Source: a virus (lineage: Duplodnaviria; Caudoviricetes). From it: 58,725 nt of DNA. Below are positions 2 to 27,855 of the stretch, one piece after another. The DNA is taken from IMG/VR virus record IMGVR_UViG_3300048672_000976, positions 1 to 58,725 of that record, one strand, 5' to 3'. The notes beneath the pieces were generated by a model, which ran no database searches, was not told the origin of the DNA, and saw only the letters and a program-made list of their open reading frames with translations. Each line of letters begins with the position of its first letter. Positions within the stretch are counted from its first letter, which is position 1. The translations under genes were made by a program, and so were the position numbers.

Positions 2-937
2 AATAACACCATTCACAATAAACGTTGTTCCGTAACTTTGTTTTGTTCTAACATCATAAAGTTTCATTAAGTCTGTTTTCAATTCATCTTTATTTTTTTT
101 AAAAACATATTGAAACAATTTTATTTTACTAATTCTACTTAATATTTTATTTGAATATTTGTATTTTTCACTAATTAATTTTAAAAAATTTACATAATCA
201 CATTCTTTTATTGTATTAATTAAAAAATCAAATTCACCATTATTTATGTTTACTTTATAAAATTCTTCAACATAATTATTACTATTTCTTTTAATAATTG
301 CATCTAATGATTTGGAATTTTTTTTAATATTAATTTCGTTTATATTTGGCTTGTTTTTTATTTTATTAACCCAATTAATTTGACGTTCATTATAAATTTT
401 TTCACCATCAATAATACCGAATTTCTTTATACATTTTTCTAATGTAAATGTTTTTTGTACATCTTTGATTTTTTCTTTTGATTCCTCTTCATTAAAACCT
501 TTATTTAACCAATAACCAATACTACGTGGTGAATGAATTTTACCATGTAATGACTTTTTTTCATTGTACATTTTTGAACCCTCAATTTCACCATATTTTA
601 TAATAAATGCTCTCTCAGTATTCATTAAATGTAATTCAACTTTTAATTTGCTTTCATCCAAATTAAAGCCTCTATGTTGCCAATATTCAACTAAACATGG
701 TTTCATAGTTTTAACTTTATATAATGCATCATCATAACCCATTCCACGTTTAATCCAATAATTTACACTAAATGCAGAGCCATTTATTTTTTCAATACCA
801 TTTTCTTTTAATATTCTAGTTATAACACTACCATCACATTTGAAATCTTTTGATATTTCCAATACCGATTTAAAATTATTAATATAATCTTCTTTAATTA
901 TATTTATTTGTTCTTCATTAAATTTTAGTTTTCCCAT
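2..937 (-). CDS. Free-standing putative homing endonuclease (partial; runs off the window edge; absent from ORF track)
   Basis: Manual translation from ATG at 937 is open to the window edge (>=312 aa): MGKLKFNEEQINIIKEDY... It has an N-terminal HTH-like segment (KSVLEISKDFKCDGSVITRILKKNGI), three YWxx(R/K)G repeats (NYWIKRG, EYWQHRG, GYWLNKG) and two K(Y/F)GxxxG repeats. It lies directly downstream of an intein-truncated sbcC. The catalytic domain would be outside the window. Confidence 0.6.
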   Translation of the reverse strand, partial: MGKLKFNEEQINIIKEDYINNFKSVLEISKDFKCDGSVITRILKENGIEKINGSAFSVNYWIKRGMGYDDALYKVKTMKPCLVEYWQHRGFNLDESKLKVELHLMNTERAFIIKYGEIEGSKMYNEKKSLHGKIHSPRSIGYWLNKGFNEEESKEKIKDVQKTFTLEKCIKKFGIIDGEKIYNERQINWVNKIKNKPNINEINIKKNSKSLDAIIKRNSNNYVEEFYKVNINNGEFDFLINTIKECDYVNFLKLISEKYKYSNKILSRISKIKLFQYVFKKNKDELKTDLMKLYDVRTKQSYGTTFIVNGVI

Positions 938-983
938 AATAATAAATATTACAGGGAAAACTAAAAGCTAAAATAAATACCAT

Positions 984-1535
984 TTATTTTAATTCATCGG
1001 GCAGAAAGCCTATTTTTTTTATAATTTCATTTTCATCAAATTCAATTTCTATTTCAGTATCTGATCTAAGGCACTTACCACCGAAATTTTTAGGCGAAGA
1101 TTCAATAACAGTAATACCATCCATTTTTGTGAAATCAATTGTGTTGTTTTCACCAAATGATAAAAAATTTGAAAAATCAATCTTTTTAATAAACCAACGG
1201 TTATATTTAACCGAATTTTGATTGTTTTTTACTATTTCAGCATTAACTTTATTATCTAATCTATCAATTAAATTCCACTTTACATCGATTTTATTATCGT
1301 TGATAAAATCTTTAATTAATGATTTCTGATATTGCTGATCCAATAATTTATCACTAACATCTAATGAACTAAGATTAGTATTTATATTTAATACTTTAGC
1401 AACCGGAACAACTTTTACTGATGATGTATGATACTTATTCTCAAAATAAGTTTTAACCCTTTTGATTTTTTCTTGAGTTAAATTTTCAGGTGTATCTTCC
1501 CAAACTACCTTTATATAAGGTTTAATTTTTGACAT
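984..1535 (-). CDS. sbcC: SbcC/Rad50/gp46-like recombination ATPase, N-terminal fragment fused to a split-intein N-part
   Basis: IKKIDFSNFLSFGENNTIDF..GITVI...KNFGGK is the SMC/SbcC N-terminus up to the Walker A Lys. Instead of the expected S/T it continues with CLRSDTEIEI and stops 29 aa later. An SbcD-like gene is nearby. Confidence 0.85.
   Translation of the reverse strand: MSKIKPYIKVVWEDTPENLTQEKIKRVKTYFENKYHTSSVKVVPVAKVLNINTNLSSLDVSDKLLDQQYQKSLIKDFINDNKIDVKWNLIDRLDNKVNAEIVKNNQNSVKYNRWFIKKIDFSNFLSFGENNTIDFTKMDGITVIESSPKNFGGKCLRSDTEIEIEFDENEIIKKIGFLPDELK
987..1073 (-). mobile_element. Split intein N-fragment (29 aa, block A only)
   Basis: CLRSDTEIEIEFDENEIIKKIGFLPDELK* starts with Cys1 and a CLxxDTxI block-A pattern exactly at the GK|S/T P-loop position. 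Confidence 0.75.
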
Positions 1536-1901: not shown

Positions 1902-2127
1902 ATAATGATGTTTCCTTTGGTATTATTTTAGGTTCCTCGATTATTTTTTTTTGTACACTATTATGGTTGGGTTTTTCACCATATTTTAAAATATTAAAAC
2001 CTTTATTAAAAACTTCTAAGGCCATTTTTTCCACATCCTCAATGTTATTTAGTTTACAATATTGGACAAATTCATTATCCAATATTAATGAGTAATTCTT
2101 TACCATCTTCAATATCTTTAATGTCAT
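1891..2127 (-). CDS. Hypothetical protein (start probably MVKNYS at ~2106)
   Basis: Fills the gap between the neighbouring genes with short overlaps. No recognisable motif. Confidence 0.55.
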   Translation of the reverse strand: MTLKILKMVKNYSLILDNEFVQYCKLNNIEDVEKMALEVFNKGFNILKYGEKPNHNSVQKKIIEEPKIIPKETSLYDE

Positions 2128-2878
2128 TTATCACAAAATGATAAAAAGGATTATTATTTTCAATATCATGAAATGTGTATTCATTTTTTAACACATCAAA
2201 TAAACCATAACCATGATGTTTAACTGTCTCGGCAAAGTTTTGTTGAATAAAACTACCAATTTGTATTCCATCACCGCCATTTGGTAATTTAAATCTTTGT
2301 CTCATATGGATATCACCACATAAAGCAACATCACAATCAACAAAATTAAGTTTATCAAATGCATCATCAAATTCATACCCCATTTCTGTTGATAAACCCT
2401 TTATTGGGCCATGAAACAACGCAACATAAACAAAACCTTCCTCCTTTTCAAACTTTGGTTTTTTATTATGCTGATAAAGTGAATATACAACCCATTTAAT
2501 ATTTAAATCATCATAGATACCATAATCTTTATAATAAACAACTCTATCATTATTTAATAGTTTTACTATTGGTGTTATACTATCTAATCGTTGAATGTTA
2601 TTTTCCAAAAAATCATGATTACCCGGTATAATAATTACTTTAGCTATTTTGCTTAATTCATTCAATACCCAAGAACATAAAATTAATTGTTCATTCGATA
2701 TATTTACTTTTTGATGAACAATATCGCCTGTAATTACAATCCGTAATTCAGATTCGTCAACACCATTAAATCGTTCATTTAATTCTATAAACAATTTTTT
2801 AAATTGGTCACGATAATTATCATGATATTGTATTGTTCTAATATGTAAATCACTAATATGTATTATTGTTTTTATCAT
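2075..2878 (-). CDS. sbcD: SbcD/Mre11/gp47-like metallophosphoesterase nuclease
   Basis: All five calcineurin-like motifs are present: HISDLH, GDIVH, PGNHD, FHG, GDIH. Confidence 0.88.
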   Translation of the reverse strand: MIKTIIHISDLHIRTIQYHDNYRDQFKKLFIELNERFNGVDESELRIVITGDIVHQKVNISNEQLILCSWVLNELSKIAKVIIIPGNHDFLENNIQRLDSITPIVKLLNNDRVVYYKDYGIYDDLNIKWVVYSLYQHNKKPKFEKEEGFVYVALFHGPIKGLSTEMGYEFDDAFDKLNFVDCDVALCGDIHMRQRFKLPNGGDGIQIGSFIQQNFAETVKHHGYGLFDVLKNEYTFHDIENNNPFYHFVINDIKDIEDGKELLINIG

Positions 2879-5523: not shown

Positions 5524-7662
5524 TTAAAAATCTAATTTCACAGCAAATACTTGTGTTCCAACTCTAGGTATTGGTTTACTTGTTTTTGCAATTACTAAAG
5601 TATCTTTATTAGCATCCAATAATGAAATTTCAGTAATCATTGGATTCATTGATAAATTATCATTTTTTGTTGGATTTTGCGACGTTGTGAATTTACCATC
5701 AGGCAAATTTATTAAAAATTTCATTTCTTCAATATCAGTTGCCCTAACTAATCTAATACTACCAGGAAATGGTTGTTCATCACCAAATTGCGGCGATAAA
5801 TTTGTTACATCATTTGATGATTGGTCGCCTAAATAATTACTAGATAAACTTGAGAAATGATTTTCTAAATCAAATAATGTTCCACTATTATATTTAGATT
5901 CATTAATTATAAATGTTGTTCCAGTTAATGATGATAACGTACTTCCACCTGCCTCTGTTGTGAAATCCATATATAACCAATTATCGGGTATTGGTGAATC
6001 ACCATCAATGGTTTCTTGTATTAAAATATGAAATGTATCTGCGGTTAAACCACCTATAAATCCATCCAATGTATTTAGAATTGTAGTAAATTCGTTTCCA
6101 AATTTAACACCTATATTTGATGGTGTTGTTATACCATCAATTTTTGAATAATAATTACATGGTAATGAATTTAATTCACCATCCGAATCAAATTTAAGTA
6201 AATAAGTTACCCAAAAAGTTTGGCCTGTTGAATTTATTAGTGATGTACTATCATCTGAATGTAAAATTGATAATTTTGGTGCTGGTAATGTATATTTTCT
6301 ATTTGAACGATAATCTAATATTGCCACTAATTCTTCATCATCAAAAACTATTATTTTTTTATCAACAAAGACTTTACCAACTTTATTATTTGATTCATCT
6401 AACAAATATCTAAATTTAATTTTTGATTTTTCATTATAAATTGATTTAACATAAAAATCATCTTCCCCCATAACAAATTTAGCCCCAATCGTTGTTCCTG
6501 TATTTCTATGATAACTGATAAATGGAATATAAACTTCAAAATAATCATTATCACTTATTGGGTCACCATTTATATCATCAATTATTGATATATCTTCACC
6601 ACTTATACCAATTTTACCACTAATATAATCATCATAAGTAAAAAATCTATCTGTGTTATTTGGTATATCTCCTACTTCTGAGAAATGAATTATTGCTAAA
6701 CATTTTTGTTCCTTTAATGTGATAGTTTCATTAAAACTATTTTTATATGTTGTCGGGTCAATTGTTCCACCTGTATAATTAATAAATGTTTGTCCTGTTG
6801 AACCATAGCCCAAATATTCCTTTGTTGAAATGTATTTGTTACTAGTGTATCCTGATAAATTTTCATCCGTGGAACTAACATCTGAACCGATAGGTTTAAT
6901 CCCCCAAACAACATTTAATGACCATGGGTTATGTTGTTCTTCACTATCAGGTAATATTGGGATACACGTTTCTGATGTATTTGTTAAATCAATTTCCAAC
7001 TCACATTTGTTACTAATAACATTACCATATCCTGTTATTGATGAAAGATCTGGCGTTTTTCTATCTAATGTTAATGATTGTGTTGTTCCTGATGTGGCAC
7101 CTGTAACACCCAATACTTTATAAATTAAACCATTCGTTGCCCCCGATATATATTTAATGTCACCATTGACATCAAAACTATTAAATGCTAAGGTTATATA
7201 TTCATTTGCTGTATATGTTGTTCCTGTTGCTTTAGTTATATTTAATATTGTACTTCCAGATATTTCTGAAAAATCAATACTATTTGAAAGACATTGTATT
7301 GTTGTTCCTGTTGTACCATCATATTCAACATAATTTGAAACAAACCCAGCTGGACCCATAACATTGCGAATTACTTCAGTTGTTGAACCTGTAATCGGAA
7401 TACCAAATATTGTTGAATCTGGTTCATATAAAAAAGGATATTTTAATTCATTGTCTTTATCTAATGGTGCGAAAACTCCTTGATGTGTAAACCCATTTGT
7501 TACACTACTCTTTATATTTGAAAATGGGTTACTATATACAAATTCGGAATCTCCAATATTAAAGAATTTAATATTAAAATCACCTTTTGCTATTGAATTT
7601 CTTCCTTTTTGTGTTATTCTTGCTGATAAATACTCAGAATTATTTTTATCTAAAAAACTCAT
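5524..7662 (-). CDS. Virion structural protein (baseplate/tail-associated)
   Basis: C-terminus ITEISLLD..KDTLVIAKTSKPI...FAVKLDF resembles a tail/baseplate terminal domain. N-terminal ARITQKGR. S/T/G-rich and located in a structural block. Confidence 0.6.
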   Translation of the reverse strand: MSFLDKNNSEYLSARITQKGRNSIAKGDFNIKFFNIGDSEFVYSNPFSNIKSSVTNGFTHQGVFAPLDKDNELKYPFLYEPDSTIFGIPITGSTTEVIRNVMGPAGFVSNYVEYDGTTGTTIQCLSNSIDFSEISGSTILNITKATGTTYTANEYITLAFNSFDVNGDIKYISGATNGLIYKVLGVTGATSGTTQSLTLDRKTPDLSSITGYGNVISNKCELEIDLTNTSETCIPILPDSEEQHNPWSLNVVWGIKPIGSDVSSTDENLSGYTSNKYISTKEYLGYGSTGQTFINYTGGTIDPTTYKNSFNETITLKEQKCLAIIHFSEVGDIPNNTDRFFTYDDYISGKIGISGEDISIIDDINGDPISDNDYFEVYIPFISYHRNTGTTIGAKFVMGEDDFYVKSIYNEKSKIKFRYLLDESNNKVGKVFVDKKIIVFDDEELVAILDYRSNRKYTLPAPKLSILHSDDSTSLINSTGQTFWVTYLLKFDSDGELNSLPCNYYSKIDGITTPSNIGVKFGNEFTTILNTLDGFIGGLTADTFHILIQETIDGDSPIPDNWLYMDFTTEAGGSTLSSLTGTTFIINESKYNSGTLFDLENHFSSLSSNYLGDQSSNDVTNLSPQFGDEQPFPGSIRLVRATDIEEMKFLINLPDGKFTTSQNPTKNDNLSMNPMITEISLLDANKDTLVIAKTSKPIPRVGTQVFAVKLDF

Positions 7663-7683
7663 ATTTTTAAACTATTTATTTTA

Positions 7684-10416
7684 TTATTGTGATTCAATTA
7701 GTACTTGTAATTTAAAATTCTTCATTACTGTACATTTATTTGGGCCATATTTATATGATTTGAATTTAACTTTATCCACCCCCTCATTATTTGTAAAAAA
7801 CTCAAAAGAAATTATTGGCGACATGATTGTTGTACCTGTAATTCCTGAATACCCAATTATATCACCATATACATTATCTTTACCTACGTTTTCACGAACA
7901 TATCCGTTAACATTATTAGTAATGAAAATTAAATTGGTTAAAGTTACATCCCATGATTGTTTTAATGTAACATAATTTACAGGTAGTGTTGTTTGTGTAT
8001 ATATTGAGGAACCACTATATACTACATTATCAATGTTCAATAATGGATAAAACTTAAATTCAGTATGTGTCGGCTCCTCATTAATTAAAGATTCAAAATC
8101 TGGATACCTATCATCAATAATTTCAAATATCTGACATGGCTTTTTATATTTATATTTACAACGTCCGAATTTACCATTTTCAATGATGTTTCCACCTGTC
8201 CATAATGAACTAGATGGTATAAATTGGTCAACAATATGTACCCAATATGGGCTCATTTTATCAATAAATTCATTAACAGTAACAAAATCATAAGGTACAT
8301 CACATAATTCAACATAGTCATAATATATCTTCTTTAAATCGAAATATGATGTGTCATATTTTACTGTATTAGATTTTTTAATTGATTTAGTGAAAATAAC
8401 ATCAATATATTCAGCAAATGTTAGGCCACTTTGTGGTAACATATTACCAAATGTTAAATTTAATGACCTAGATTGTCGATAAATATCATAATCAATTGTT
8501 TGTGATGGTGATAAATGAACACTAAGATTTTTTCTATTTAATACTAAATTTGTATCTACTTTAGCTTTTTTATTATCAATACTTGATTTTAACCCAAAAC
8601 CATAATTTAATCCGGGTAATTGCTTAAAATTATTAAAATAATCTTCGCCGTAAGTAAATGGTTTATTTTTTGTTTTAGTATATTTTGTTCTACCTGTTAA
8701 AATAGAATTTTCATAGTCAATCTCATTTAATGATCTATGTTCCAATGTTGATTTATACCAACCAGCACCTTTTTGAAAAAATATATTACCATCAGTACTC
8801 GTCACTTTTTTTGGTAATCCAAATTCATCAATTGGGTAATCACTTCTATTTAAACTTACCGTGGTTATCGTGTTTCCTGTACTATATGTTACACCTGATG
8901 ATGTTTGAGTTATACCTGTTATCATTATAGTATTTGAAATACCATTAATTACATCGTAAATATCATCTTCTAATGTTGATATGTTTGGTAACATGTCAAT
9001 ATTATAAACATATTCATCAATTTTTATCATTGGCTCAGGTGCACCTAAGAATCTTAAAAAAAAGTTTAATGAATTTCTAGTACCTTTGGATTTATAAATA
9101 TGTGATAAATTAACCAACATTCTTCGATAAAACTCATGTTCTGATTCAATTAAATTCTTCCCAATTGTTAAACCACCATATGAACTGTTTTGTCTATTGT
9201 AGAGTACATCATTTAAACTTTTTTCGTCAAAAAGATTTATGGTACTTAATCCTAAATTATTTGATAAATTTTTTAATAGTGCATCAGGTAAATTATTTAT
9301 TCCATCATAACTAACATGTCGCATATGTGCAATATTATCAATGTATTTCTTTACACTATCAAAACTTTGGCCATATAATTGAAAAATTGATTCTGCATGT
9401 TTATCTTCCGTATCAAATTCAAATAATTGTGGTGATGTTAAAAATCTTACAATTATATTTGATTTATAATCGTCGATTTCTTCTGCCAAAGTACTTAATT
9501 TATTAATAAATTGTAAATATTCAATACCAACTATTTGTATATTTCTATTATCTTTAGATAATGGCCAATTTAATTCAACACTTACAATATCAGTTCCTGA
9601 ATCATCAAAACTATCTCTAGGTACTTTAAATGATGAAGTATAAATTGGATTTGTTTCCCTATTTAATAATTGTGACTCCAAATCATCCAAATTATCATAA
9701 AAATTTTCAGTTATTTCATTATTTGGCCTAATTATTAAATCTTCACTTATTTCTGTTAATTCACCAAATGGATTACCTTTAACTTTTAATGTTATAATAT
9801 TGTTTATATTTGGTTCGATATAATTTATTATATCATATGTTTTATCATTATATTCTAATGTGTAGTTTTTATAAATTGAATAAAAATTTCTATTAGGGTT
9901 TTCAACTTCATTAATTGTGTTACTATTTGGTTTTTTTAATAAAATACCAAATGGGTTATATATTATGGAATATTCAATGTTAAATGTTGTCGTTCTATCT
10001 AATTTATTGTAAGTAATATTAAATGCTGTATTTAAACTATCCCTCACTATACTAGTATTATCAACTAAAATAATGGCAGGAAAATTTTTAATAATTCGAT
10101 TAATCGACACATTAATTCTTTGTTTCAATGAACCAAATAATGAACGGCCAGCATCATTTTTACCGCCATTGAATTTTATTTTTTCTTCTTGCTTTTCAAG
10201 TATTGTTTCAGATAAATCATCCAAAGTAACAAAATCGGAAAATGGTGATGTCACAAATGATTTACTATCTCTATCTACTATTTCTCTATCAATAGTAAAA
10301 TTTGCATTGGTTAATTGGCTTGTTCCATCTGTTATCTGAACACCAACTAAATTATCATTAAATGTTTCTAATCCACTACTTACTTGACTTGGTACTTTAT
10401 ATCTAACTTTCTTCAT
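7684..10416 (-). CDS. Baseplate wedge/tail protein with P2 gpI-like segment
   Basis: LPDALLKNLSNNLG...YRRMLVNLSHIYKSKGTRNSLNFFLRFLG resembles the tail-I/wedge motif. Confidence 0.6.
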   Translation of the reverse strand: MKKVRYKVPSQVSSGLETFNDNLVGVQITDGTSQLTNANFTIDREIVDRDSKSFVTSPFSDFVTLDDLSETILEKQEEKIKFNGGKNDAGRSLFGSLKQRINVSINRIIKNFPAIILVDNTSIVRDSLNTAFNITYNKLDRTTTFNIEYSIIYNPFGILLKKPNSNTINEVENPNRNFYSIYKNYTLEYNDKTYDIINYIEPNINNIITLKVKGNPFGELTEISEDLIIRPNNEITENFYDNLDDLESQLLNRETNPIYTSSFKVPRDSFDDSGTDIVSVELNWPLSKDNRNIQIVGIEYLQFINKLSTLAEEIDDYKSNIIVRFLTSPQLFEFDTEDKHAESIFQLYGQSFDSVKKYIDNIAHMRHVSYDGINNLPDALLKNLSNNLGLSTINLFDEKSLNDVLYNRQNSSYGGLTIGKNLIESEHEFYRRMLVNLSHIYKSKGTRNSLNFFLRFLGAPEPMIKIDEYVYNIDMLPNISTLEDDIYDVINGISNTIMITGITQTSSGVTYSTGNTITTVSLNRSDYPIDEFGLPKKVTSTDGNIFFQKGAGWYKSTLEHRSLNEIDYENSILTGRTKYTKTKNKPFTYGEDYFNNFKQLPGLNYGFGLKSSIDNKKAKVDTNLVLNRKNLSVHLSPSQTIDYDIYRQSRSLNLTFGNMLPQSGLTFAEYIDVIFTKSIKKSNTVKYDTSYFDLKKIYYDYVELCDVPYDFVTVNEFIDKMSPYWVHIVDQFIPSSSLWTGGNIIENGKFGRCKYKYKKPCQIFEIIDDRYPDFESLINEEPTHTEFKFYPLLNIDNVVYSGSSIYTQTTLPVNYVTLKQSWDVTLTNLIFITNNVNGYVRENVGKDNVYGDIIGYSGITGTTIMSPIISFEFFTNNEGVDKVKFKSYKYGPNKCTVMKNFKLQVLIESQ

Positions 10417-11339
10417 TATACATTAGTTATGTTATCTAAATTCAATGTTTCATCAATATCTGTTCTTTCTTCCCTAACTTCATACAATGTTTCACTAAAC
10501 TGATCTTTTATTTCATATAAATTATATTGCTTATAAATGTTATTATCTTTATCATAAATTGTGTAAATACCAGGCGTGATTGCTTTACTTTGATTACCAT
10601 AAAGTGCATTAGCTAGTGTACTTGCATCATGTTCAACCATATCAATTTCTATTGTGGTTGGATTAACAAATGTGTTAGATAAGATAATTTTTTGACTAGG
10701 TTGACCGATAAAAGGTACAACATTTGGTCTAGTTGATGGTGATGAGGATGGCGTTATTGTTAAAAATACCAAATTAGAAACCTGATCAGTATATTGATAT
10801 CTAATTGCTTTATCAGTTGTACTTGATAAATTAGAAGTTATTGGCGTACAATAAAATGATGACGTGATTACTCTATATGTGTTAGGTATTTTAGTTTTAC
10901 CATCATTTGTGTTAATATATTCAACACGGTATCCAACTAATCCTTGTGGCGTGAATTTACTTCTATCTTCCGACGGTACATTATTTAAATCAATAATTAA
11001 ACCTCTTACAGATGGTAATGAAGCCAATACACCACAATCAGTTATTGTAGTTCTAATTTGTTTAGGTCTAATATGTAATGTGTATATACCCAATTCAGAA
11101 AAATCATCGGCATTTAATTTTAAATTATATAAACCACCTAAAATTTCACTATTTGGTGCGGATGTATCATCAGTTGTTTCCGTATTATGATATACAGGTG
11201 TTAAAATATCTGTTGATATTAACTTTTTTAATGTTACGGTTTCTGTTGTTGATCTGGTTGATGAATAATGATAAAAAATATCAATATCATCGGGTGATAA
11301 ATCTGCTGGGCGTATAATCCCATATGAACCAATTGACAT
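10416..11339 (-). CDS. Putative virion structural protein
   Basis: Translationally coupled (TAATG) to the next gene; beta-rich; preceded by TATTTAT. Confidence 0.55.
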   Translation of the reverse strand: MSIGSYGIIRPADLSPDDIDIFYHYSSTRSTTETVTLKKLISTDILTPVYHNTETTDDTSAPNSEILGGLYNLKLNADDFSELGIYTLHIRPKQIRTTITDCGVLASLPSVRGLIIDLNNVPSEDRSKFTPQGLVGYRVEYINTNDGKTKIPNTYRVITSSFYCTPITSNLSSTTDKAIRYQYTDQVSNLVFLTITPSSSPSTRPNVVPFIGQPSQKIILSNTFVNPTTIEIDMVEHDASTLANALYGNQSKAITPGIYTIYDKDNNIYKQYNLYEIKDQFSETLYEVREERTDIDETLNLDNITNV

Positions 11340-11374
11340 AAATTAAATTTGTTTTATTATAAATAAATATTACC

Positions 11375-11893
11375 TTATTGTTTTTTAACTGTGTAATATC
11401 CGTTTCCGTACTTAGTTAACATATCAATATTATCAACCTCGCCTAATCTTAAATTCATTTCCATTACACTTTGATTACCTCTTTCTATGAAAACATCAGA
11501 AAATATTGTTGGTTGCTCAATAAAACCTAAAAAATGCTCATTTCTCGTTATTACTTGTTGAAAAACTTCCTCTTTTGTGAAACCACTAGTACTACCCATT
11601 ATCATTGTATATCCTTCCGGATAATCCTCATAATAGATATTATCAATTGTATAGCCACTAACATTTCCATTAATAGTTACACCACTATATTGATTTGTAC
11701 CATATTTTTTCAATTCAGATATTTTACTTTGGCCGATAGAATTATAATATGTGGTACCTGTAAATGATGTATAACCTGTATTAATAGAATAATCTAAATT
11801 AGTATAGTAACTTTGATCAATTGTTTCTGTTTCACCAGATAAATTTAAGTAATATGGAATAGTAAATGTAAGTGTTCCTGACTCTATAAGCAT
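11375..11893 (-). CDS. Putative virion protein (possibly the C-terminal half of a split gene)
   Basis: C-terminal DVFIERGNQSVMEMNLRLGEVDN motif; six [ST]GxT motifs in 172 aa. Confidence 0.55.
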   Translation of the reverse strand: MLIESGTLTFTIPYYLNLSGETETIDQSYYTNLDYSINTGYTSFTGTTYYNSIGQSKISELKKYGTNQYSGVTINGNVSGYTIDNIYYEDYPEGYTMIMGSTSGFTKEEVFQQVITRNEHFLGFIEQPTIFSDVFIERGNQSVMEMNLRLGEVDNIDMLTKYGNGYYTVKKQ

Positions 11894-11950
11894 AATATAT
11901 TGATATATATTATTAAATATAAAGAAAAAAATATTATTAATAAATGATTA

Positions 11951-12922
11951 TTAAATTAGTTCAAATGAAACAATTATCGATGGAAATTGACCATCACTTA
12001 ACCCAATACTATTTAAATATCTTGTTGGAAAAGTATATGATGTTGAATTTGGTGTTGAAATAATTGTTGAGGTTCCACCATAAGTAAATGATTCTATTTT
12101 TGTAATTTTATAACCCGAATCTGCCGTTATTTGAATACCTGATAAATTATATCCTGTTGTATTAATTAATAAGTTATAATTTGTTGTAAAAACTGCATTA
12201 TTTCCTGTTGAATTTAATGTCATAGTTCCACCACCTAAATTGCCATCAAAATTGCGTAATTCAAAATAATATTTATATTCTGTTGTTGGGGTTGGAGTTG
12301 GGGTTGGAGTTGGGACCGGTGTGATATATAAATCATCACATTGTTGGTAAGTTAATGTGGCCGTTTTGTATTCATTACTTGTTGAACCTGAAATATTGGT
12401 TATATTAAAACTAAACGTATATGTCCCTTGGAATAAAACAATTTTACCTATTTTATAACCAATACCTGTTTGTGTCAATGTTAATGTTTCAGGAACAGAT
12501 ACTGGTGTGTAAATATCATTCGGTGTAACTGTTATTGTTGATGTTATAATAGCATTACTGTCAAATATATTATCCAAAGTTAATTCCAAATATGGATAAC
12601 CATTTAAACCAAATAAATCAGTTTCATCTATACTATTACAATCAGATTTAATAGTTAATATATCTGAATAACAATCTATATCTGTTATCTCATAGCCTTC
12701 AGTTAATTGATTATACGTGACACCTGTTATATATGTCGTTATTGTAGGTTGTTCATTACTAACTTTAACAATACCTGAGCATAATGATGGACCATCAATA
12801 CTAATAGGATTGACTTTATTAGCATCCAAAGATAAACCACTTGATGGTGTTGACATTATTGTTATTGTGAATGGACCAATATCTTCTCTTGGTGTCTCAC
12901 TAAATCTTACTATTAAATTCAT
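11951..12922 (-). CDS. GPF-module fibre/decoration protein
   Basis: Start taken at MNLIVRF (12922). N-terminal IGPFTI module, short TP linker, and a C-terminal YKYYFELR domain shared with the 2805-aa protein. Confidence 0.6.
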   Translation of the reverse strand: MNLIVRFSETPREDIGPFTITIMSTPSSGLSLDANKVNPISIDGPSLCSGIVKVSNEQPTITTYITGVTYNQLTEGYEITDIDCYSDILTIKSDCNSIDETDLFGLNGYPYLELTLDNIFDSNAIITSTITVTPNDIYTPVSVPETLTLTQTGIGYKIGKIVLFQGTYTFSFNITNISGSTSNEYKTATLTYQQCDDLYITPVPTPTPTPTPTTEYKYYFELRNFDGNLGGGTMTLNSTGNNAVFTTNYNLLINTTGYNLSGIQITADSGYKITKIESFTYGGTSTIISTPNSTSYTFPTRYLNSIGLSDGQFPSIIVSFELI

Positions 12923-12933
12923 AATTTTAAATA

Positions 12934-15900
12934 TTAACATAAATTATTATATGCATCTAATCCTATTACATAATTACTACGACCTGATTCAACACCACAT
13001 ACCGTTTGTGTGACATAATATTGGAAGAAACTTTGTAATGTTGTGACAGTAAATACTGTTGAACCACTATTATTAACATTTACTTCAGCAAGAACATCAT
13101 TTAAATTATCTCTATAAAACTTAACTGTACAACCATTACCAACGGTAATTAAATTAGTAACCGATACAACATAATATCCACCATTTTCATTTCTACATAT
13201 TGACATTACTGGAGTATCTAATATTGGATTAGCAATAATAACACTATTAATTACAGTAAACGAACCTGCACAGGTATTAACAATCACTTTAACTTCCACA
13301 TTACCCGGACATATTGTTCTAGTGAATGATGTTGAACTATTTGAAGTAATAAGACTTTCTAGCAATATACCATCTTTATAAAGTTCATAATGAAAATCAA
13401 TATATGAACCATTAAACCCATCAACACTACAATTTATTATTGAATTACCATATGATGGATTATTGGTATGTAATGTTGCTGTGGTTGCAGCATTACAACA
13501 ACTACCAATTGTTGGTTGTGTTCCACCCACATCAATACCATTTACTTGGTAATGTCCATACGATGCCGAACATTGGTTATTATCTTGGTAAATTGTATAT
13601 TCAACACCACCACTACATGTTATATTTCCAGTACTGGTCCAACTAGGGTTAGTATTAATTGTATTTGACGGATTACTAGCATATGATGTACCATTCATAT
13701 AATATTGATTACCACCAAAACAAGCATTACTATTTTGATAAACAGTATATGATGTTACAACACCATTGCTGCATGTACTATATGTTCCAACATTAATACT
13801 ATAATTTGCTGAAGTATCAATAGTGTTTGATGGATTATATGAATATGTTGTCCCATTCATTAAATAATTTTGGCCACCACTATAACAAGCATTACTGTTT
13901 TGATAAACAGTATATGATGTTACAACACCATTACTACACGTACTATATGTTCCAACATTAATACTATAATTTGCTGAAGTATCAGTACCACATGTGGCCG
14001 AACATGTTTCCCAAACCTCAGCACTTCCAACATTATTACCTGTACAATTATATTTTAATTGACGATATTGGGTTGTTCCCACACAATAATAATCATAATA
14101 TGTTCCACCACAACTTTCATCACAATCACAAGTTGATGATGAAATAATTCTATAACTAAATGTTCCACATTTATTTGTTGTACCTTGACGTTTTTCACAA
14201 CCAACACAATATGGTGAACCATAATCATAGAAATATAATGCATTATATAAAATGATATCATATAACGTATCGGCAACAGTTGTTGTTGAATCACCATTCC
14301 ATGCGACACCATTTAATATCAATCCACAAATATTACTACTATAAATAATTCTAAAAATTGTACCGGCAGGATACGTTTGTGTTCCATTTTTGAAATTTAA
14401 ATCAGCAACCCAAGCACCATTTTGATAAAATTGTATTGCGTATTCATTAGTATTAGGGCTATCTTGTGGATTTAACGCAATAGTACTATATGACGGTGGC
14501 ACGATAATTGGTGATTTAGTTGGTGTAACCGTTACTGTTGGCGTAACCGTTCTAGTTGGTGTTACGGTGTTTGTTGGGGTTGGTGTTGGGGTTAAATTAG
14601 TTGTTTTAGTTGGTGTTGGTGTTAATGTTTTAGTTGGCGTAACCGTACTAGTTGGTGTTGGGGTTAAATTAGTTGTTTTAGTTGGTGTTAGTGTTAATGT
14701 TTTAGTTGGCGTAACCGTTACTGTTGGTGTTGGTGTAACACATAACCCAAATGTTGGTGTACTTGTTAAAACATATGATGGTTGACCTGTATAATTAATT
14801 AAATATTGTAAATATGTTGATGAAAAACGATTAATATCAATAAAAACATCGTAACTATAACCATTATAACATGTTTTTTGTTGAACACCAAATGGGTCAA
14901 AAAATGGATACCATTCAGGATCATATGATGTAACTGTACAAAATGGTTGTGATGAAATCGTAACACCACTAATAAATGTTGTTCTGATGCTATGTGGTAC
15001 TTCGATAAATAAGAATGTGTTAAAGTTAATGTAACCATCTCTACGATAAAATCCATTATCAATATGGAAATTACTATAAACCGCAGTTGGGTAACCACCT
15101 ATTTTACATATATCATTATCAAAATAACCTAAATCATAAATATAATACATAAACACCGGTGTTGTTGGTGTAATAGTATTAGTTGGTGTAACTGTTTTTG
15201 TTGGTGTAATGGTTGGTGTAACTGTTTTTGTTGGTGTAACCGTATTCGTAGGGGTAACGGTATTTGTTGGTGTGACCGTTTTTGTTGGTGTGACCGTTTT
15301 TGTTGGTGTAACAGTTCGTGTTATTGTTGGGGTTACAGTCATTGTTGGTGTTGGTGTTGGTGTTCGTGTTATACATGTTGAAATATCAAGAACAACACCA
15401 TCTCTACTAATTGTATAAACAACACCATTAATTGAATAATAACCTTGTGTTGCAATATTTGTTGATAATATTAATGCTGATTTATATACTATATTATCAA
15501 CTTGTAATGTTGATGAACCTTGCCAATATAGGTTAAAAATGTTTGTATAATTATAACAAGCATCATATTGCGATGTACTATTAAATTGTAAATTCAATAA
15601 TTCACGGATTGGCGTTGTTGGTGTCGGGGTATTAGTTGGTGTAACTGTGTTTGTTGGTGTTATACTAGGCGTAACTGTTGGTGTAACTGTTTTTGTTGGT
15701 GTAATTGTACTAGTTGGTGTTTTTGTTGGTGTAACTGTAACTGTTGGGGTTACTGTTTTAGTTGGTGTAATGGTACTAGTTGGTGTAATCGTACTTGTTG
15801 GTGTAACTGTTCTTGTTGGTGTAATTGTAGTTGTCGGTGTAACTGTTTTGGTCGGGGTTATACTAGGGGTAACAGTATTTGTTGGTGTTACTGTGTTTGT

Positions 15901-18900
15901 TGGTGTTATCGTGTTTGTTGGTGTTACTGTGTTTGTCGGTGTAACTGTGTTTGTCGGTGTAACAGTTTTTGTTGGGGTTACTGTATTTGTCGGTGTAATA
16001 GTATTTGTTGGTGTTATCGTGTTTGTTGGTGTTACTGTGTTTGTCGGTGTTATACTAGGTGTAACAGTTTTTGTTGGTGTTACTGTGTTTGTCGGTGTAA
16101 CTGTGTTTGTCGGTGTAACAGTTTTTGTTGGGGTTACTGTGTTTGTCGGTGTAATAGTATTTGTTGGCGTAACAGTTTTTGTTGGGGTTACTGTATTTGT
16201 CGGTGTAATAGTATTTGTTGACGTAACAGTTTTTGTTGGGGTTACTGTGTTTGTCGGTGTAATAGTATTTGTTGGCGTAACAGTTTTTGTTGGGGTTACT
16301 GTATTTGTCGGTGTAATAGTATTTGTTGGCGTAACAGTTTTTGTTGGTGTGATAGTGGGTGTTGGTGTTGGTGAACTAAATGGCGATGGAGTTACAGTAG
16401 GTGTAACGGTATTTGTTGGTGTAACGGTATTTGTTGGTGTTATACTAGGTGTAACAGTATTCGTAGGGGTTACTGTTGGAGTTGAAGTTGGGGCAACAGT
16501 AAAATTAAATTTTACTACTGGGTAAACAGTTATACCTGTACTATTAATAAATACACTAACAACACCACCAAAGGTATATGATGATGAATTTGGGTAAAAT
16601 ACCCAAATTAAATCATTATTAACATCATAATATTCTATTGAACTTATAATATTTCCTGAATTAGCAATAACATTCTTATTAGTTAATTCATATTGTGCTG
16701 TTGAAACAAATAAATCATATGTTGTTGTAACTATTATTGGATTTTTAGGGTCATTATCTAAATAAAATGACCCCCCACCAAATCCACCACCGGGGGCATA
16801 CATTACAAATCTATATCTAAAAATTGTTGGTGTTGATGTTGGCGTAACAGTAGGAGTAATGGTATTAGTTGGAGTAACTGTTTTTGTTGGGGTTATGGTA
16901 TTTGTTGGTGTAATAGTGTTTGTTGGTGTAACTGTGTTTGTTGGGGTAATACTAGGTGTAACTGTGTTTGTTGGGGTTACACTCATTGTTGGTGTAACTG
17001 TTTTTGTTGGAGTAACTGTGTTTGTTGGCGTAATAGTATTTGTTGGTGTTACACTCATTGTTGGTGTAACTGTTTTTGTTGGGGTTATAGTATTTGTTGG
17101 TGTAACTGTTTTTGTTGGTGTTATCGTGTTTGTTGGTGTTACAGTATTTGTTGGAGTAACTGTTTTTGTTGGTGTTATCGTGTTTGTTGGTGTTATGGTA
17201 CTAGTTGGTGTTACTGTGTTTGTTGGTGTATTAGTATTTGTTGGTGTAATAGTATTTGTTGGTGTAACTGTTTTTGTTGGTGTGACTGTGTTTGTTGGTG
17301 TAACTGTGTTTGTTGGCGTAATGCTACTAGTTGGTGTGACTGTGTTTGTTGGCGTAATAGTATTTGTTGGTGTAACTGTTTTTGTTGGTGTGACTGTGTT
17401 TGTTGGCGTAATAGTATTTGTTGGCGTAATACTACTAGTTGGTGTGACTGTGTTTGTTGGTGTAACTGTGTTTGTTGGGGTTACACTCATTGTTGGTGTA
17501 ACTGTTTTTGTTGGAGTAACTGTGTTTGTTGGCGTAATAGTACTAGTTGGTGTGACTGTGTTTGTTGGTGTAACTGTGTTTGTTGGGGTTACACTCATTG
17601 TTGGTGTAACTGTTTTTGTTGGAGTAACTGTGTTTGTTGGCGTAATAGTATTTGTTGGTGTTATAGTACTAGTTGGTGTTATTGTATTCGTTGGTGTCGA
17701 GGTATTAGTTGGTGTAACTGTGTTTGTTGGTGTAACTGTGTTTGTTGGTGTTATAGTACTAGTTGATGTTATTGTATTCGTTGGCGTTACTGTTTTTGTT
17801 GGTGTAACTGTGTTTGTTGGTGTAACTGTATTCGTTGGTGTTGGTGAACTGAATGGTGATGGTGTGATACTAGGTGTAACTGTGTTTGTTGGTGTAACTG
17901 TATTTGTTGGTGTAACTGTATTCGTTGGTGTAACAGTATTTGTTGGTGTAACTGTATTCGTTGGCGTTACTGTGTTTGTTGGTGTAACTGTATTTGTTGG
18001 TGTAACTGTATTTGTTGGTGTAACTGTATTTGTTGGTGTAACTGTATTCGTAGGGGTTATGGTAGTCGTAACAGTATTTGTTGGTGTTATGGTATTTGTT
18101 GGAGTAACTGTGTTTGTTGGTGTAACTGTATTTGTTGGTGTTATGGTATTTGTTGGCGTTACTGTATTTGTTGGTGTTACTGTGTTTGTTGGTGTAACTG
18201 TTACAGTAGGTGTTACTGTGTTTGTTGGTGTAACAGTATTTGTTGGTGTGATTGTATTTGTTGGCGTAACAGTTTTTGTTGGTGTAACGGTATTTGTAGA
18301 GGTTACTGTATTCGTTGGGGTGGTTGTAGGAGTTACAGTTACAGTATTCGTTGGGGTAACGGTATTTGTAGAGGTTACTGTATTTGTAGGGGTTACAGTA
18401 TTTGTTGGTGTTACGGTATTTGTTGGCGTTACTGTTTTTGTTGGTGTAACTGTTACTGTTGGTGTTACAGTATTTGTTGGAGTAACTGTTTTTGTTGGTG
18501 TAACAGTATTTGTTGGCGTAACAGTTTTTGTTGGTGTAACGGTATTTGTAGAGGTTACTGTATTCGTTGGTGTTACAGTATTTGTTGGGGTAATAGTATT
18601 TGTTGGCGTTACTGTTTTTGTTGGTGTAACTGTTACTGTTGGTGTTACAGTATTTGTTGGCGTTACTGTTTTTGTTGGTGTAACTGTTACTGTTGGTGTT
18701 ACAGTATTTGTTGGAGTAACTGTTTTTGTTGGTGTAACAGTATTTGTTGGTGTTACAGTATTTGTTGGTGTTATGGTACTAGTTGGTGTTATCGTGTTTG
18801 TTGGTGTTATGGTACTAGTTGGTGTAGCTGTGTTTGTTGATGTAATAGTATTCGTAGGGGTAATAGTATTCGTAGGGGTAATAGTATTTGTTGGCGTTAC

Positions 18901-21351
18901 TGTTTTTGTTGGCGTAACAGTATTTGTCGGTGTAACAGTATTTGTCGGTGTAACAGTATTTGTTGATGTAACTGTATTTGTCGGTGTAACAGTATTTGTT
19001 GATGTAACAGTTTTTGTTGGTGTAACCGTATTCGTAGGGGTAACGGTATTTGTTGGTGTGACCGTATTCGTAGGGGTAATTGTATTTGTTGGGGTTACAG
19101 TTTTTGTTGGTGTAATTGTATTTGTTGGGGTTACAGTTTTTGTTGGTGTAACCGTATTCGTAGGGGTAACGGTATTTGTTGGGGTAACGGTATTCGTTGG
19201 TGTAATTGTTTTTGTTGGTGTAATGGTTTTTGTTGGCGTAACTGTATTTGTTGGTGTAACAGTATTTGTTGGTGTAACAGTATTAGTTGGCGTAATTGTG
19301 TTTGTTGGTGTGATTGTAGGAGTTACAGTTACAGTATTCGTTGGGGTAACGGTATTCGTTGGGGTAATGGTTGGTGTAATGGTTACTGTTTTTGTTGGTG
19401 TAATGGTATTTGTTGGTGTAATGGTATTTGTTGGTGTAATACTACTAGTTGGTGTAATACTAATAGTTGGTGTAGGGGAACTAAATGGCGATGGTGTTAC
19501 AGTAGGTGTTGGTGTTGGGGTCGGTACTATTGATAATACAGCATCAATTATAATTGTATCTCCGTTTGTTATTGTTATACCACTAAAACTAGGTAAATCT
19601 AATGGATTAAAATAATCACTATTATATTCTTCATAAATAATATTTTCAACATTATTTATATTTCTAATTGTAATTTTTAAATATAATAATGAATTTTGTG
19701 TATTTGATACCCACCCAATTGTAAAATCATCAGCAGCATATTGTGTGATATTATAAATTGCATTAGTTATTGATGTATTAAAATTAAAAATGTCAACATT
19801 ATTTGCTGAAATATTTAAAATATCATTAGTGTTATTTGTTATTAAATTTACTATTAAATAATTACAATTTACATAACTCTCATATCTATTATCCCCATAT
19901 GTAATAGATGATTCACCTAAAGCTAAAACATCATTATTGCTATTTTTTAATAAGATAGTAAAATTAGTTGTATGTACAACATTTGAACTATCGTAATAAT
20001 TTATATAAGCATTTATTGGGTCATCAAAATTACTTAAATATGGTGCTGATGGACCATCTATTAATACTAATTCTAAATATGAACCATCAGGAATTGTAAT
20101 TGATGGTAAATCAAGATTAAATTGTACTGTACATAAATCATTTACATCGCAATCAGGTAAAATACATATCGGATCACCTAATGTTATTGTTGGTATAGGA
20201 CAATGAGCATTAAAATCAAAAATACCAACACCATTTGGTTTTATTACTGTGATTTGTAAAACTGATGGTGATGCATTTAATTCTTTATAAAAATATACTT
20301 CCGATGGTATATCGTTAATATCACTAATTAAATATAATTCATTACCATTATATTTTACACTTATTGAAGTGATGTTACCTGTCGCAATAATATCAATTAA
20401 AACCCATCCATTTGTTTCATTTTCTAAATCAATTGTGTAAGTATAAACCGCAGGATTTGAAAGTGTTGTACCTGTAAAACCAACATTATCGCCACAATTT
20501 GCATAGAATTGATAATAATCAATAGGTATTGTTTTTGTTGGGGTAATAGTTGGGGTTACAGTAGGTGTTTTTGTTGGTGTTACTGTATTTGTTGGTGTTA
20601 CTGTTGGTGTTGGTTTTATTGCAAAATATACGATAATCGACGGAAAATACCCTTCAGTAATACCGTTATTAGTCATAAATAACGTCCCAAAAGTATAAGT
20701 ATCAACATATGGTTCAGCTATTGTTGTTGTAACACCCCAATACGAAATTGAATCTATTTTTGAAATTGTGTAACCATTATTTGCTATAATTGTCGTCCCC
20801 AATAAATTATACGCACTATCATTTAATCCTAAATTATAATTTGTATAAAAAACAGCATTATTACCTACGCCATTTAATGTTATTGTTCCGCCACCCATAT
20901 CATTATATGGATCACGCATTTCAAAATAATATTTGTACGTATAAAGAACAACACTTTCGGTTGGTGTAACTGTTGGGGTAATAGTACTTGTTATTGTTAC
21001 CGTTGGTGTAACTGTTGATGTTACGGTTACTGTTGGTGTTAATGTATTTGTTGGTGTGACTGTTGGTGTAACTGTTGGGGTTGGTGTTGGGGTAACTGTT
21101 GGGGTAATTGGATAAATAATGTTACTATCACAACCTAATAGTGTATTATGTAAAATAAGTTGCGTTGTGGTATCAGGTATGGTAACTATTACACCATTAA
21201 CTGAATTTAACTGCGTTAATGTTAAACCAACAGCAAAGTCAGTTGTATTGAAAATAGTTGCATAATTATTTGCATTTATTTCATCATAATATATATTAAA
21301 TGGTCCTTCTGTTGAACCAGTTGTGATTTTTATTTTATAATATTTTGACAT
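12934..21351 (-). CDS. Giant (2805 aa) Thr/Pro-repeat fibre/adhesin-like protein
   Basis: N-terminal GPFNIYYD module, long TPT(N/K/S)T(V/I) arrays separating beta-rich domains, and a Cys-rich repeat C-terminus. Confidence 0.7.
13655..13985 (-). repeat. Near-identical tandem duplication (~55 aa, ~165 bp) of a Cys-rich unit
   Basis: [33 protein letters not shown] occurs twice; DNA differences in the core are synonymous. Confidence 0.9.
15612..16495 (-). repeat. 18-bp coding tandem repeat array (TPTNTV-type hexapeptide)
   Basis: Repeated plus-strand gttggtgtaac(a/t)gt(a/g/t)ttt units. Confidence 0.95.
16830..19525 (-). repeat. ~2.7-kb 18-bp coding tandem repeat array (TPT[NKS]T[VI])
   Basis: About 900 residues of almost uninterrupted hexapeptide repeat, with synonymous variation between units. 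Confidence 0.95.
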
Positions 21352-22707: not shown

Positions 22708-22719
22708 TAAAAAAATAAA

Positions 22720-24192: not shown

Positions 24193-24194
24193 TT

Positions 24195-26273: not shown

Positions 26274-27855
26274 TTTTAATTATATTTATTGTAAAAATTA
26301 CAGTTCATTTTGAAATTAGAGTAACTACCACTTAATGAATCATAGAATTCTTCTGTCATATCAATAATAAATTCATGAACATCATTATCATAAATATTAT
26401 AATACTTAGGAATACCACCATTAATTATTAAATCTTCATCAGGAATTATTGTACCATTCATATATTTCAATAAATTAACCTCACTTCCTGTTTTATTAAA
26501 TTGTAATTGTTGATTTACTATTGATGTGTTACTATTATTTTGATAAATCAATTTATATTTCATCATTTTCACATAACGATTTGCATTATCTGGGTGATTA
26601 TTATCTCTTAATGGACCATAATCACTAGTGTAACCAAAACCACCTTTAGTATCACATAATTCCCAAACAACTCTACCCTCAGTATTATTTTCAAATTCAA
26701 CTAATTTCATATATACTTTAGATTTCTCTGAACCATGATAGGTAATTGAATGTGTTGGTAAGTCTATTGTTATATATTTTACACCGTTAATATCAACTTT
26801 ACCTGAACGATTATTTGTTCCACCATTAACATTTAATGATGGATATGTAACGCCATATTGTCCATAGAATCTAAATGCTGATATACCATCTGAAATAGGG
26901 CTATTATATGAATTTATGATGTTTAAGTAGGTCCAATAATCACTACCATAACTATATCCTTGCCATCCTAGCCACCATGAATTAAAGTTATTCTGATCGT
27001 TATTATCATAAGGTTCAAAAGCAACTTCAATATCTTGACAATCTAATGTTACAGGTGTTGGGGTTGGGGTGATTATTGGTACAACAGTCGGCTCAATACC
27101 TATTAATATTTGGAAACTAGCATTAAATGTTGTTATTATATTTCTTATTCTAAGTTGATATGCTTCATCTAATACTGAAGGTGTTGGATATTCAATAGGC
27201 TCAATTGAAATTACTAACTCAATTAATGAGCCTCTAAACATATCAGGTATAATGTAACCATTTGGTAAACCATATATCTTATTTAATCTATTAATTGTGA
27301 AATATGGCCTACATGTATATATATAATCACCTTGAGTGTATAAGAAAGTCCCACCTGTATTTATTTCATTATCATAATTATTATTAACAAATACATAATT
27401 AATAGTTAAACCATCTGATTCTATATTCATTTTATGGTACCAAAAATCACCATTATCACCTAAATAACCCCATCCATCATCATTAAATACTGTTGTGTAA
27501 TATGGAAATAATATTTTTGTTCCAATGACACCAGTACTCGGTGCCGTTAATGTACCAATTTCAGTAACAGTACCACTAATTATTTTAACATATTTAGGTA
27601 TCCCTAAATTAAAATATAACATATAACCTGTTATATTGAAGTGACCGGCATTTTCGTTATAAATTTTACTACCAATTACCAAACCATTAGATGTGTCAAC
27701 TTTTACTGTTTCAATAACATTACTTACCATAGATGCTTCAGGTATTATGTAATTATATAATTCAGTTAAATCATTATAATAGTTTAATGTGCCTGTATTA
27801 TTAGTAAAATACCAATATGATGTATAAACCATATTACTAACACCATATAATTGTA
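24195..27855 (-). repeat. Diverged direct duplication, ~1.6 kb (24195-~25800 vs 26276-~27855)
   Basis: Long identical peptides such as [38 protein letters not shown] and [15 protein letters not shown] occur in both copies. Confidence 0.95.

Follow-up and report, generated by a model that had tools for sequence, protein, structure and literature searches.

A fractured SbcC-like phage gene with a putative atypically split intein inside its Walker A motif

Fractured genes that carry split inteins were described by Dassa et al. in 2009 (gp41-1, gp41-8, NrdJ-1, IMPDH-1 and others; PMC2677866), and, as far as the accessible parts of that and the other cited papers go, they occur mainly in phages and in enzymes of DNA metabolism. 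A gene of the same kind probably lies at one end of the virus record IMGVR_UViG_3300048672_000976 (Duplodnaviria; Caudoviricetes). This record is analysed here in its entirety, so that the window, as it is called below, is the whole stretch of 58,725 base pairs (bp), with a completeness of about 19% according to CheckV. On its minus strand, a gene for an SbcC/Rad50-like ATPase breaks off within the Walker A motif, continues into a short intein-like tail and then terminates. A fractured gene with an atypically split intein is the best explanation of the locus as a whole, and we hold it with good, if not complete, confidence.

The resemblance to the published fractured genes extends to the signals around the endonuclease gene. 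Hairpins were found at the endonucleases of fractured genes in 15 of 16 cases, upstream of the start codon and often together with a late-promoter element (PMC2677866), and such a hairpin is present in the window as well. Moreover, the endonuclease gene and the reading frame of the C-terminal intein part (IntC) overlap by 6-69 bp in the published loci (PMC2677866), and the 3' end of the endonuclease gene overlaps the IntC frame by 4-28 nucleotides (nt) in nine of the 15 relatives of our locus in which such a gene separates the halves. Unlike the present intein, most of those described by Dassa et al. are split at the canonical site, with an N-terminal part (IntN) of 88-105 amino acids (aa; PMC2677866). 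The accessible text of the same paper lists eight host enzyme types without mention of SbcC, gp46 or Rad50 (supplementary figures S1-S4 may hold more loci), and the only case related to SbcCD in that text is an SbcD-like gene fractured by a Vsr-like open reading frame (ORF), with no intein.

Atypically split inteins offer a second parallel. The known natural examples, AceL-TerL, GOS-TerL, VidaL and PolB16, have an IntN of 15-37 aa in the literature available to us, and the 29-aa IntN of the window falls within this range, with IntN and IntC encoded by separate ORFs in the relatives. The inteins of the TerL terminase (GOS-TerL, AceL-TerL and 'Cat', PDB 6dsl) share with the SbcC intein a phage or metagenome origin and a short IntN combined with a long IntC that contains blocks B, F and G. 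The GOS terminase locus itself belongs to a fractured gene and has a C-part of 122 residues (PMC2677866), close to the 122-126 aa of IntC in our relatives; the similarity is remote. In the TerL type the split lies after the first helix, at the 'S2' position (PMC13014065), and, as judged from sequence and models, the SbcC intein may well be split at the same position. Unlike the TerL inteins, the present one resides in an SbcC/Rad50-like ATPase instead of a terminase, it is inserted inside Walker A (GK|T/S), and its nucleophiles are Cys1 and Thr+1, compared with the Ser and Cys reported for GOS-TerL. For the contiguous form of the SbcC intein, which one relative carries, the best match by sequence among solved structures is VidaL (PDB 6vgv), with residues 272-397 of protein P0243 aligned to chain residues 21-143. 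VidaL is likewise atypically split and cysteine-dependent (PMC13014065), but its IntN of 16 aa, split after strand beta-2 ('S1'), differs from the 29 aa found here.

The third group of related systems consists of the EDxHD or Vsr-like homing endonucleases, such as I-Bth0305I (PDB 3r3p), which are found in fractured genes and combine an N-terminal DNA-binding region of helix-turn-helix (HTH) or NUMOD-like character with a C-terminal nuclease (PMC3239194). Their motifs recur in the endonucleases that we call type A, encoded by most of the relatives, and 3r3p has the nuclease fold nearest to a model of P0241, a close homologue of the window's endonuclease. The latter belongs to type B, which, unlike these enzymes, is longer, contains an extra helical domain and has a core without D-x-x-H.

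No intein or split intein in SbcC, gp46 or Rad50 was found in the literature searched, most subscription journals and supplements lying outside the search, and the main text of the intein survey PMC4760082 contains no occurrence of SbcC or Rad50. This agrees with an earlier note on this DNA, which knew of no characterised atypical split intein in an SbcC/Rad50 host. What the locus presents is a known fractured-gene arrangement in a host protein for which no earlier description turned up in these searches, and no new principle is involved.

The break in Walker A and the two intein halves

Four features make up the locus in the window:
1074..1535, minus strand: N-extein, the first 154 residues of an SbcC/Rad50-like ATPase up to and including the Walker A Lys (NFGGK), recognised by homology to protein P0001
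987..1073, minus strand: IntN, the 29-aa N-part of an atypically split intein (Cys1 to PDELK), with the stop codon TAA at 984..986
923..992, minus strand: two RNA hairpins that take in the 46-nt spacer and its surroundings, with the first endonuclease codons, recognised by folding against shuffled sequences
2..937, minus strand: free-standing homing-endonuclease-like gene, first 312 of about 421 codons, running off the contig end

ORF 984..1535 on the minus strand encodes 183 aa, namely the 154-aa N-extein and the 29-aa tail, followed by TAA. In a BLASTP comparison, its residues 6-155 are 71% identical to residues 4-153 of P0001, an uninterrupted homologue of 778 aa. The similarity ceases at NFGGK, where P0001 goes on S-T-A-T-V-D-L-L, and the earlier statement that SbcC ends at the Walker A Lys is therefore exact. 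The codons for G-K-C occupy 1079..1071. Longer homologues amount to 1781 matches among 5977 candidates; of the 120 listed, most have a length of 776-789 aa, and several bear the JGI name 'DNA repair exonuclease SbcCD ATPase subunit'. In these 120 the Walker A Lys is followed by Ser (102 proteins) or Thr (18), and GGKC occurs in none of them. Homology to the uninterrupted proteins breaks off at GGK and is taken up again at T/S-T-x-(V/I)-D in the relatives' downstream ORFs, which marks an in-frame insertion absent from the orthologues.

The host protein belongs to SbcC/Rad50 at the superfamily level. Rad50 in the PDB is matched at about 1e-6 by the protein of a related locus, L113, and the NCBIfam sbcc/Rad50 models give E values of 1e-8 to 6e-8, yet with scores far under their cutoffs. 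Matches to SbcC_Walker_B are below threshold as well, and searches of Pfam and PHROGs with the 183-aa ORF returned no family. The motifs CPTC, SGSGYE, VVMDEV and SHN are readable in P0001. As a separate observation, a conserved N-terminal extension of about 100 residues (P-x-I-K-V-x-W-E-D-x-P-E-N...) precedes the usual Rad50/SbcC start in this SbcC-like family. In the window it corresponds to residues 1-100 of ORF 984..1535, for which Pfam, PHROG and NCBIfam give no match.

In the tail, GGK is followed by Cys and 28 further residues (CLRSDTEIEIEFDENEIIKKIGFLPDELK), which read C-L-R-S-D-T-E-I-E-I-E-F-D-E-N-E-I-I-K-K-I-G-F-L-P-D-E-L-K before TAA and carry a net charge of -5. Short homologues of 100-321 aa gave 187 matches among 724 candidates, and the tails of the best 120 were inspected. 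An ending of the form GKC...P[DN][EQ]LK, defined as a regular expression, occurs in 73 of these, and near-variants (PEELK, PKELK, PDELI etc.) in 16 more, so that the IntN tail is present in 89 of the best 120, the window's own included; the remaining 31 come from uninterrupted genes that were truncated where a contig ends. Conservation on this scale argues against chance read-through, and the acidic, intein-like peptide that had been noticed after the Walker A Lys turns out to be a conserved IntN. Its length in the 73 proteins is 29 aa in 61, 30 in five, 31 in two and 37 in five.

The consensus of the tail is C-V-R-x-D-T-E-I-E-I-E-F-D-E-x-x-I-I-N-K-L-G-F-L-P-D-E-L-K. In an alignment of 20 N-fragments with exteins 47-65% identical to that of the window, every sequence has Cys155, Gly176, Pro179, Leu182 and Lys183, and Cys155 is also invariant in 20 of 20 tails derived from DNA. 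On average, sequence pairs share 64% identity in IntN and 53% in the N-extein. The pooled ratio of nonsynonymous to synonymous substitution (dN/dS) in IntN is about 0.17, a value obtained from 29 codons and 129 non-independent pairs with saturated dS. A dN/dS of 0.53 for the flanking extein was set aside as unreliable, because that stretch was compared ungapped and dS was saturated.

The second half of the gene lies outside the record. The contig ends at coordinate 1, inside ORF 2..937 of the minus strand, and this phage's own C-half is therefore unreadable; since the window is the whole record, there is no adjacent stretch to read. Two scans of IMG/VR for related loci, in which degenerate DNA patterns represented the end of the tail, returned 24 loci, and these were examined by tblastn and ORF listing. 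Among them, L093 is spurious, L099 holds the IntN tail and part of an endonuclease gene only, and L115 and L118 repeat L114. Among protein queries, a single N-fragment returned only two related loci, both with an uninterrupted gene, and an alignment of N-fragments returned 80 loci, none of which matched beyond residue 158, so that no IntN tail was among them.

In 19 distinct related IMG/VR loci, an N-fragment with the IntN tail is followed by an ORF that opens with an IntC of 122-126 aa. This IntC has the form M-x-K-E-I-T-I-G-E-L...G-A-D-Y-H...L-Y-D-I-Q-V-A-E-V-H-Q-Y-Y-x-N-G-I-V-S-H-N. Beyond its terminal SHN, the ORF continues in register with uninterrupted SbcC from the residue that follows the Walker A Lys, and this +1 residue is Thr in 16 of the loci and Ser in three. 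The IntC ORF begins with its own ATG, 27-1587 nt downstream of the IntN stop. An ORF with IntC and the rest of SbcC had been predicted downstream of the break, and it is in these relatives that the prediction is borne out, as the window contig ends before that point. By analogy, the C-half of this phage would lie just beyond the contig end.

The relatives differ in what the split contains. An endonuclease gene lies between the halves in 15 of the 19 loci. In the other four (L087, L090, L091 and L101) there is no endonuclease gene, and only 27-96 nt separate the IntN stop from the IntC start; their split either persists after loss of the endonuclease or predates its gain. In L086, L088, L092 and L095, extra small ORFs of 59-172 aa are located between the endonuclease gene and the IntC ORF, which indicates that the cassette in the split can carry additional cargo. 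Two loci, L112:5021-6067 (minus strand) and L117:3418-4764 (minus strand), encode N-fragments of 348 or 448 aa with the same split intein at the same P-loop site. These fragments are longer because an SbcD/Mre11-like phosphoesterase is fused ahead of the SbcC N-part, and the intein allele therefore occurs in at least two host-gene architectures.

A contiguous form of the intein also exists. In L113:2764-5292 (minus strand), the same intein, 158 aa long, occupies the same Walker A site, with G-K before it and S-S-I-I-D after it. The residues K-L-E-N-A, together with the former IntC Met, bridge the point at which the other loci are split. L113 may represent the unsplit ancestor or a re-fusion of the split intein. 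Across 12 full-length rows, mean pairwise identity is 66% for IntC and 36% for the C-extein; an intein more conserved than its host would be expected of a mobile element under selection for splicing.

The identity of the intein was examined through its motifs and by profile searches. His60 of block B, Asp104 of block F, His121 and Asn122 are invariant in 16 of 16 aligned IntC sequences of the relatives; block B can be read only there, because the window has no IntC. The natural contiguous form in L113 allows searches with profiles and structures without joining halves artificially. Against the PDB, the L113 protein matches VidaL at an E value of 8.4e-6 and the gp41-1 intein at 5.6e-4, and the IntC of L119 matches gp41-1 at 3.4e-4, CatC (the consensus atypical TerL intein) at 8e-4 and VidaL at 9.5e-4. 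The NCBIfam model TIGR01443 (intein_Cterm) is exceeded in relatives with 21.8 and 16.3 bits at a cutoff of 15.6; a Pfam search with the L113 protein gave no match. The nearest intein in a cultured phage, in the terminase of Delftia phage PhiW-14, is 31% identical.

Additionally, the two fragments were combined in a structure prediction of the complex, with window residues 146-183 and residues 1-135 of the L119 IntC. The score was 0.79, and the best of three controls reached 0.01. The mark applied to such scores was reached by 58 of 80 solved complexes and by two of 110 mismatched pairs, and the runs showed contact agreement of at least 84% and a partner pLDDT (predicted local distance difference test) of at least 75. 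As split inteins have already been solved, this pass may reflect likeness and does not amount to proof. In silico, IntN and IntC are predicted to associate into one fold.

The endonuclease gene and the hairpins at its start

The ORF 937..2 starts 46 nt past the IntN stop. It encodes an HTH, several YWxxxG helical modules in repetition and a middle domain that is helical, and it is 65% identical to the 421-aa P0241 over all 312 aa, which places about 109 C-terminal residues, including the nuclease core, beyond the contig. Its first 190 residues share 56% identity with the ORF that separates the SbcC halves in L096 and align with all 15 of the ORFs found between halves; thereafter, the sequences diverge. 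The free-standing endonuclease ORF with HTH and YWxxxG repeats that had been proposed here is thus present and homologous to the relatives' genes in the split, while only its DNA-binding two-thirds lie in the window.

Two types of endonuclease can be distinguished. Type A, found in 13 of the 15 relatives, comprises proteins of 336-352 aa with the motifs YDF(T/V)D, IIE(Y/F)xGDxxHxNP and IWDSEY. Type B is a longer group of about 407-437 aa to which the window ORF, P0241 and P0242 (421 aa) and the ORFs of L112 and L117 belong. It contains the extra helical domain and a core of the form RSxxE...YDFY...YIEYxG, with no D-x-x-H, and its family includes 4637 proteins at E<=0.001. In an alignment of 60 sequences, the core of P0241 has S315, Y338, D347, F348, E358, G361 and K385 as invariant residues and E318 in at least 90%, and no conserved His was found in it.

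An AlphaFold2 model of P0241 built from 60 sequences has a pLDDT of 94.1. In Foldseek, over about 90-105 aligned columns, it matches the catalytic domain of I-Bth0305I (3r3p) with probabilities of 0.95 and 0.92 and a target template-modelling (TM) score of 0.51-0.61, and Vsr with probabilities of 0.77-0.85; the E values of the I-Bth0305I and Vsr matches, 0.6-2.5, are non-significant, and no Foldseek match of this model reached E<=0.001. Profile searches of the PDB gave only T7 endonuclease I at E 0.024 for type B and nothing significant for type A. Pfam and PHROGs searched with ORF 2..937 returned noise-level matches only, and no Pfam family covers type B. Neighbours of the C-terminal part of P0241 in the ESM Atlas, to be taken as leads only, include DUF559 (20% of one cluster), an AbaSI-like cluster and a cluster of homing-endonuclease repeats. 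With P0241 as query, viral and metagenome contigs yielded distant relatives only, and P0241's own contig was not returned. The gene of the window can be assigned, with moderate confidence and on the basis of models, to a divergent subtype of Vsr/PD-(D/E)xK-like homing endonucleases.

The region between the two genes folds into a stable structure. The hairpins at 923..992 have a minimum free energy of -23.5 kcal/mol and a z score of -5.89, and none of 200 shuffled sequences was as stable. In the second hairpin (966..923), the region of the endonuclease start codon (AUGGGAAAACUAAAA) is paired with its upstream complement. Start-codon hairpins with z <= -2.5 against mononucleotide shuffles occur in nine of 16 loci, the window included, and those of the relatives often carry a conserved A/T-rich motif in the loop.

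Proposed trans-splicing and its alternatives

The following sequence of events is proposed for this locus. The intein would have been inserted between the Lys and the Ser/Thr of Walker A and would itself be split after about 29 residues, with the free-standing homing-endonuclease gene occupying the split. The N-fragment (154-aa N-extein and 29-aa IntN) and a separately translated C-fragment, which by analogy with the relatives would consist of an IntC of about 122 aa and about 620 aa of SbcC, would associate via their intein pieces. The reassembled HINT fold would then perform trans-splicing through a thioester at Cys1, attack by Thr/Ser+1 and cyclisation of the terminal Asn. Splicing would restore a continuous GK(T/S) P-loop, and the full-length ATPase of about 775 aa would act together with the SbcD-like nuclease encoded nearby. 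The endonuclease would presumably cleave alleles that lack the intein and so spread the cassette, and its translation is probably held back by the hairpin over the start codon. Protein trans-splicing is thus probable, and the endonuclease is presumed to be active.

A further role is conceivable, in which the split and its cassette have been recruited as a switch for the timing or the assembly of SbcCD. In that case, the N-half would be supplied by the upstream operon, the endonuclease and the C-half would be under a hairpin-gated element resembling a late promoter, and the SbcCD nuclease would gain its ATPase only after both halves had been made and joined by splicing. Selection in favour of the split as such would fit both the retention of the split in endonuclease-free loci and the conservation of the intein above its host; we nevertheless consider such a switch unlikely.

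Several observations weigh against trans-splicing by a split intein in this phage. First of all, its C-fragment has not been observed, the contig ending at coordinate 1, and tblastn with SbcC C-parts and IntC found no match within the 58.7-kb window. Moreover, the Thr of the block B motif TxxH is replaced by Ala (A-D-Y-H) or Ser in these inteins. The earlier note had suggested a check with HINT profiles, and on the relatives' sequences its outcome is divided: intein_Cterm is exceeded, as described above, and two other models remain under their cutoffs, namely Pfam Intein_splicing (E 3.6e-4 to 0.01; 16-21 bits against a gathering threshold of 35.8) and NCBIfam intein_Nterm (15 bits against 24.5). 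A single-sequence AlphaFold model of the contiguous L113 intein is unusable, with a pLDDT of 34. Additionally, both IntN and IntC have a net negative charge (medians -4 and -7.5), and they show no sign of the complementary charges that have been described in some split inteins.

The replacement in block B and the sub-threshold scores of the general intein profiles would also suit halves that associate and splice poorly or not at all, leaving either a non-covalent two-chain SbcC or a decaying locus. A precedent is a fractured phage gene that, according to the accessible text of its description, assembles without splicing (PMC3045599). However, Cys1, the block B His, the penultimate His, the terminal Asn and the +1 Thr/Ser are invariant in all sequences examined, and an unspliced HINT domain of about 150 aa would separate the P-loop Lys from its Thr. 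The intein is also more conserved than the exteins, and this alternative appears improbable.

The missing C-half raises another alternative, namely that the N-fragment is an orphan in this phage, with its partner lost or located elsewhere and the 183-aa ORF a mere remnant. It would agree with the contig stopping inside the endonuclease gene and with the lack of a C-half in the window, but the record is only about 19% complete, and in all 19 related loci that reach far enough a C-fragment lies within 27-1587 nt of the IntN stop. The N-fragment ORF and its tail are intact and conserved, and the partner sbcD-like gene is intact as well. An orphan is, in our view, quite improbable. Invariant catalytic residues and universal synteny together make both this explanation and the lack of splicing unlikely.

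A natural contiguous form, as in L113, could also mean that an error of assembly or sequencing broke a contiguous intein here. Public contigs of two studies speak against it, those of run X1 reproducing 105-1600 and those of run X2 reproducing 156-616, 595-949 and 1042-1600, in each case with 0 differing letters and 0 gaps; the best-matching run is possibly the source sample. The stop and the spacer are therefore not a one-off assembly error. Furthermore, another 88 protein clusters, which stem from independent assemblies, end at this very position, and the IntC ORFs of the relatives have start codons of their own, which renders an artefact very improbable. In the public contigs of four runs, which start at 16-105 or later, none extends past coordinate 1, and no RNA run carrying the region is listed among the public runs.

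Finally, a group I or II intron that carries the endonuclease ORF and is removed from the RNA, with the intein-like tail as read-through, is scarcely credible: Vsr-like endonucleases do occur in group I introns too (PMC2677866, accessible text), but a search of window 1-2000 against Rfam found nothing at E<=1, the tail shows conservation in its protein sequence and always has the same stop, the downstream ORFs of the relatives encode complete intein blocks B, F and G, and in the four of 19 loci without an endonuclease the 27-96 nt between the halves are too short for an intron.

A split intein of this kind is of practical interest. Few natural split inteins have an IntN that is small enough to be made by peptide synthesis, and such inteins are in demand for protein ligation. 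To these the SbcC intein family contributes an IntN of 29 aa, a Cys1/Thr+1 pair and a new host protein, and it offers dozens of natural variants for consensus design, as well as a natural contiguous form for comparison. The other natural clusters, at least 88 in number, could yield an efficient Cys1/Thr+1 ligation tool with a short IntN. In terms of phage biology, the fractured-gene arrangement is now placed in the ATPase subunit of the phage SbcCD/Mre11-Rad50 nuclease. One gene family comprises three states, a split with an endonuclease, a split without it and a contiguous intein, and this bears on the origin of split inteins or on their re-fusion. The appeal is chiefly to specialists in inteins and protein engineering, and for general biology it is modest.

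Gene neighbourhood and lineage of the phage

All genes at this end of the contig are on the minus strand. In the direction of transcription, the fractured gene is preceded by a phrog_298 exonuclease, an SbcD-like metallophosphoesterase and two small ORFs. The second of these genes is the partner of the fractured SbcC:
2075..2878, minus strand: gene for an SbcD/Mre11-like nuclease subunit (phrog_100 'SbcD-like subunit', E 1.3e-19; Pfam Metallophos, E 1.1e-10)

The gene order in a related contig with an uninterrupted SbcC-like gene (L005) is identical to that of the window. A tblastn search of 50,697 cultured-phage records with the N-fragment gave no match at E<=1e-5. Ten large neighbouring ORFs were scanned within 5524..12940 and 21379..31159 (minus strand), and seven of them lack a PHROG match at E<=1e-5; among the same ten, a primase and a RuvC-like resolvase were recognised, and two match only a PHROG of unknown function. 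The scarcity of PHROG matches, together with the lack of a match among cultured phages, suggests a poorly sampled lineage of large uncultured freshwater phages. Four matches to the tail pattern in GTDB genomes were rejected, as none encodes a relative; these matches are due to chance and give no clue to the host.

Further along the minus strand, an ORF of 2805 aa is located at 12934..21351. Open frames occur on the strand opposite to it, at 16859..19615 (plus strand, 918 aa) and 15647..16525 (plus strand, 292 aa), and they probably reflect no more than the composition of a gene that is repetitive or of low complexity.

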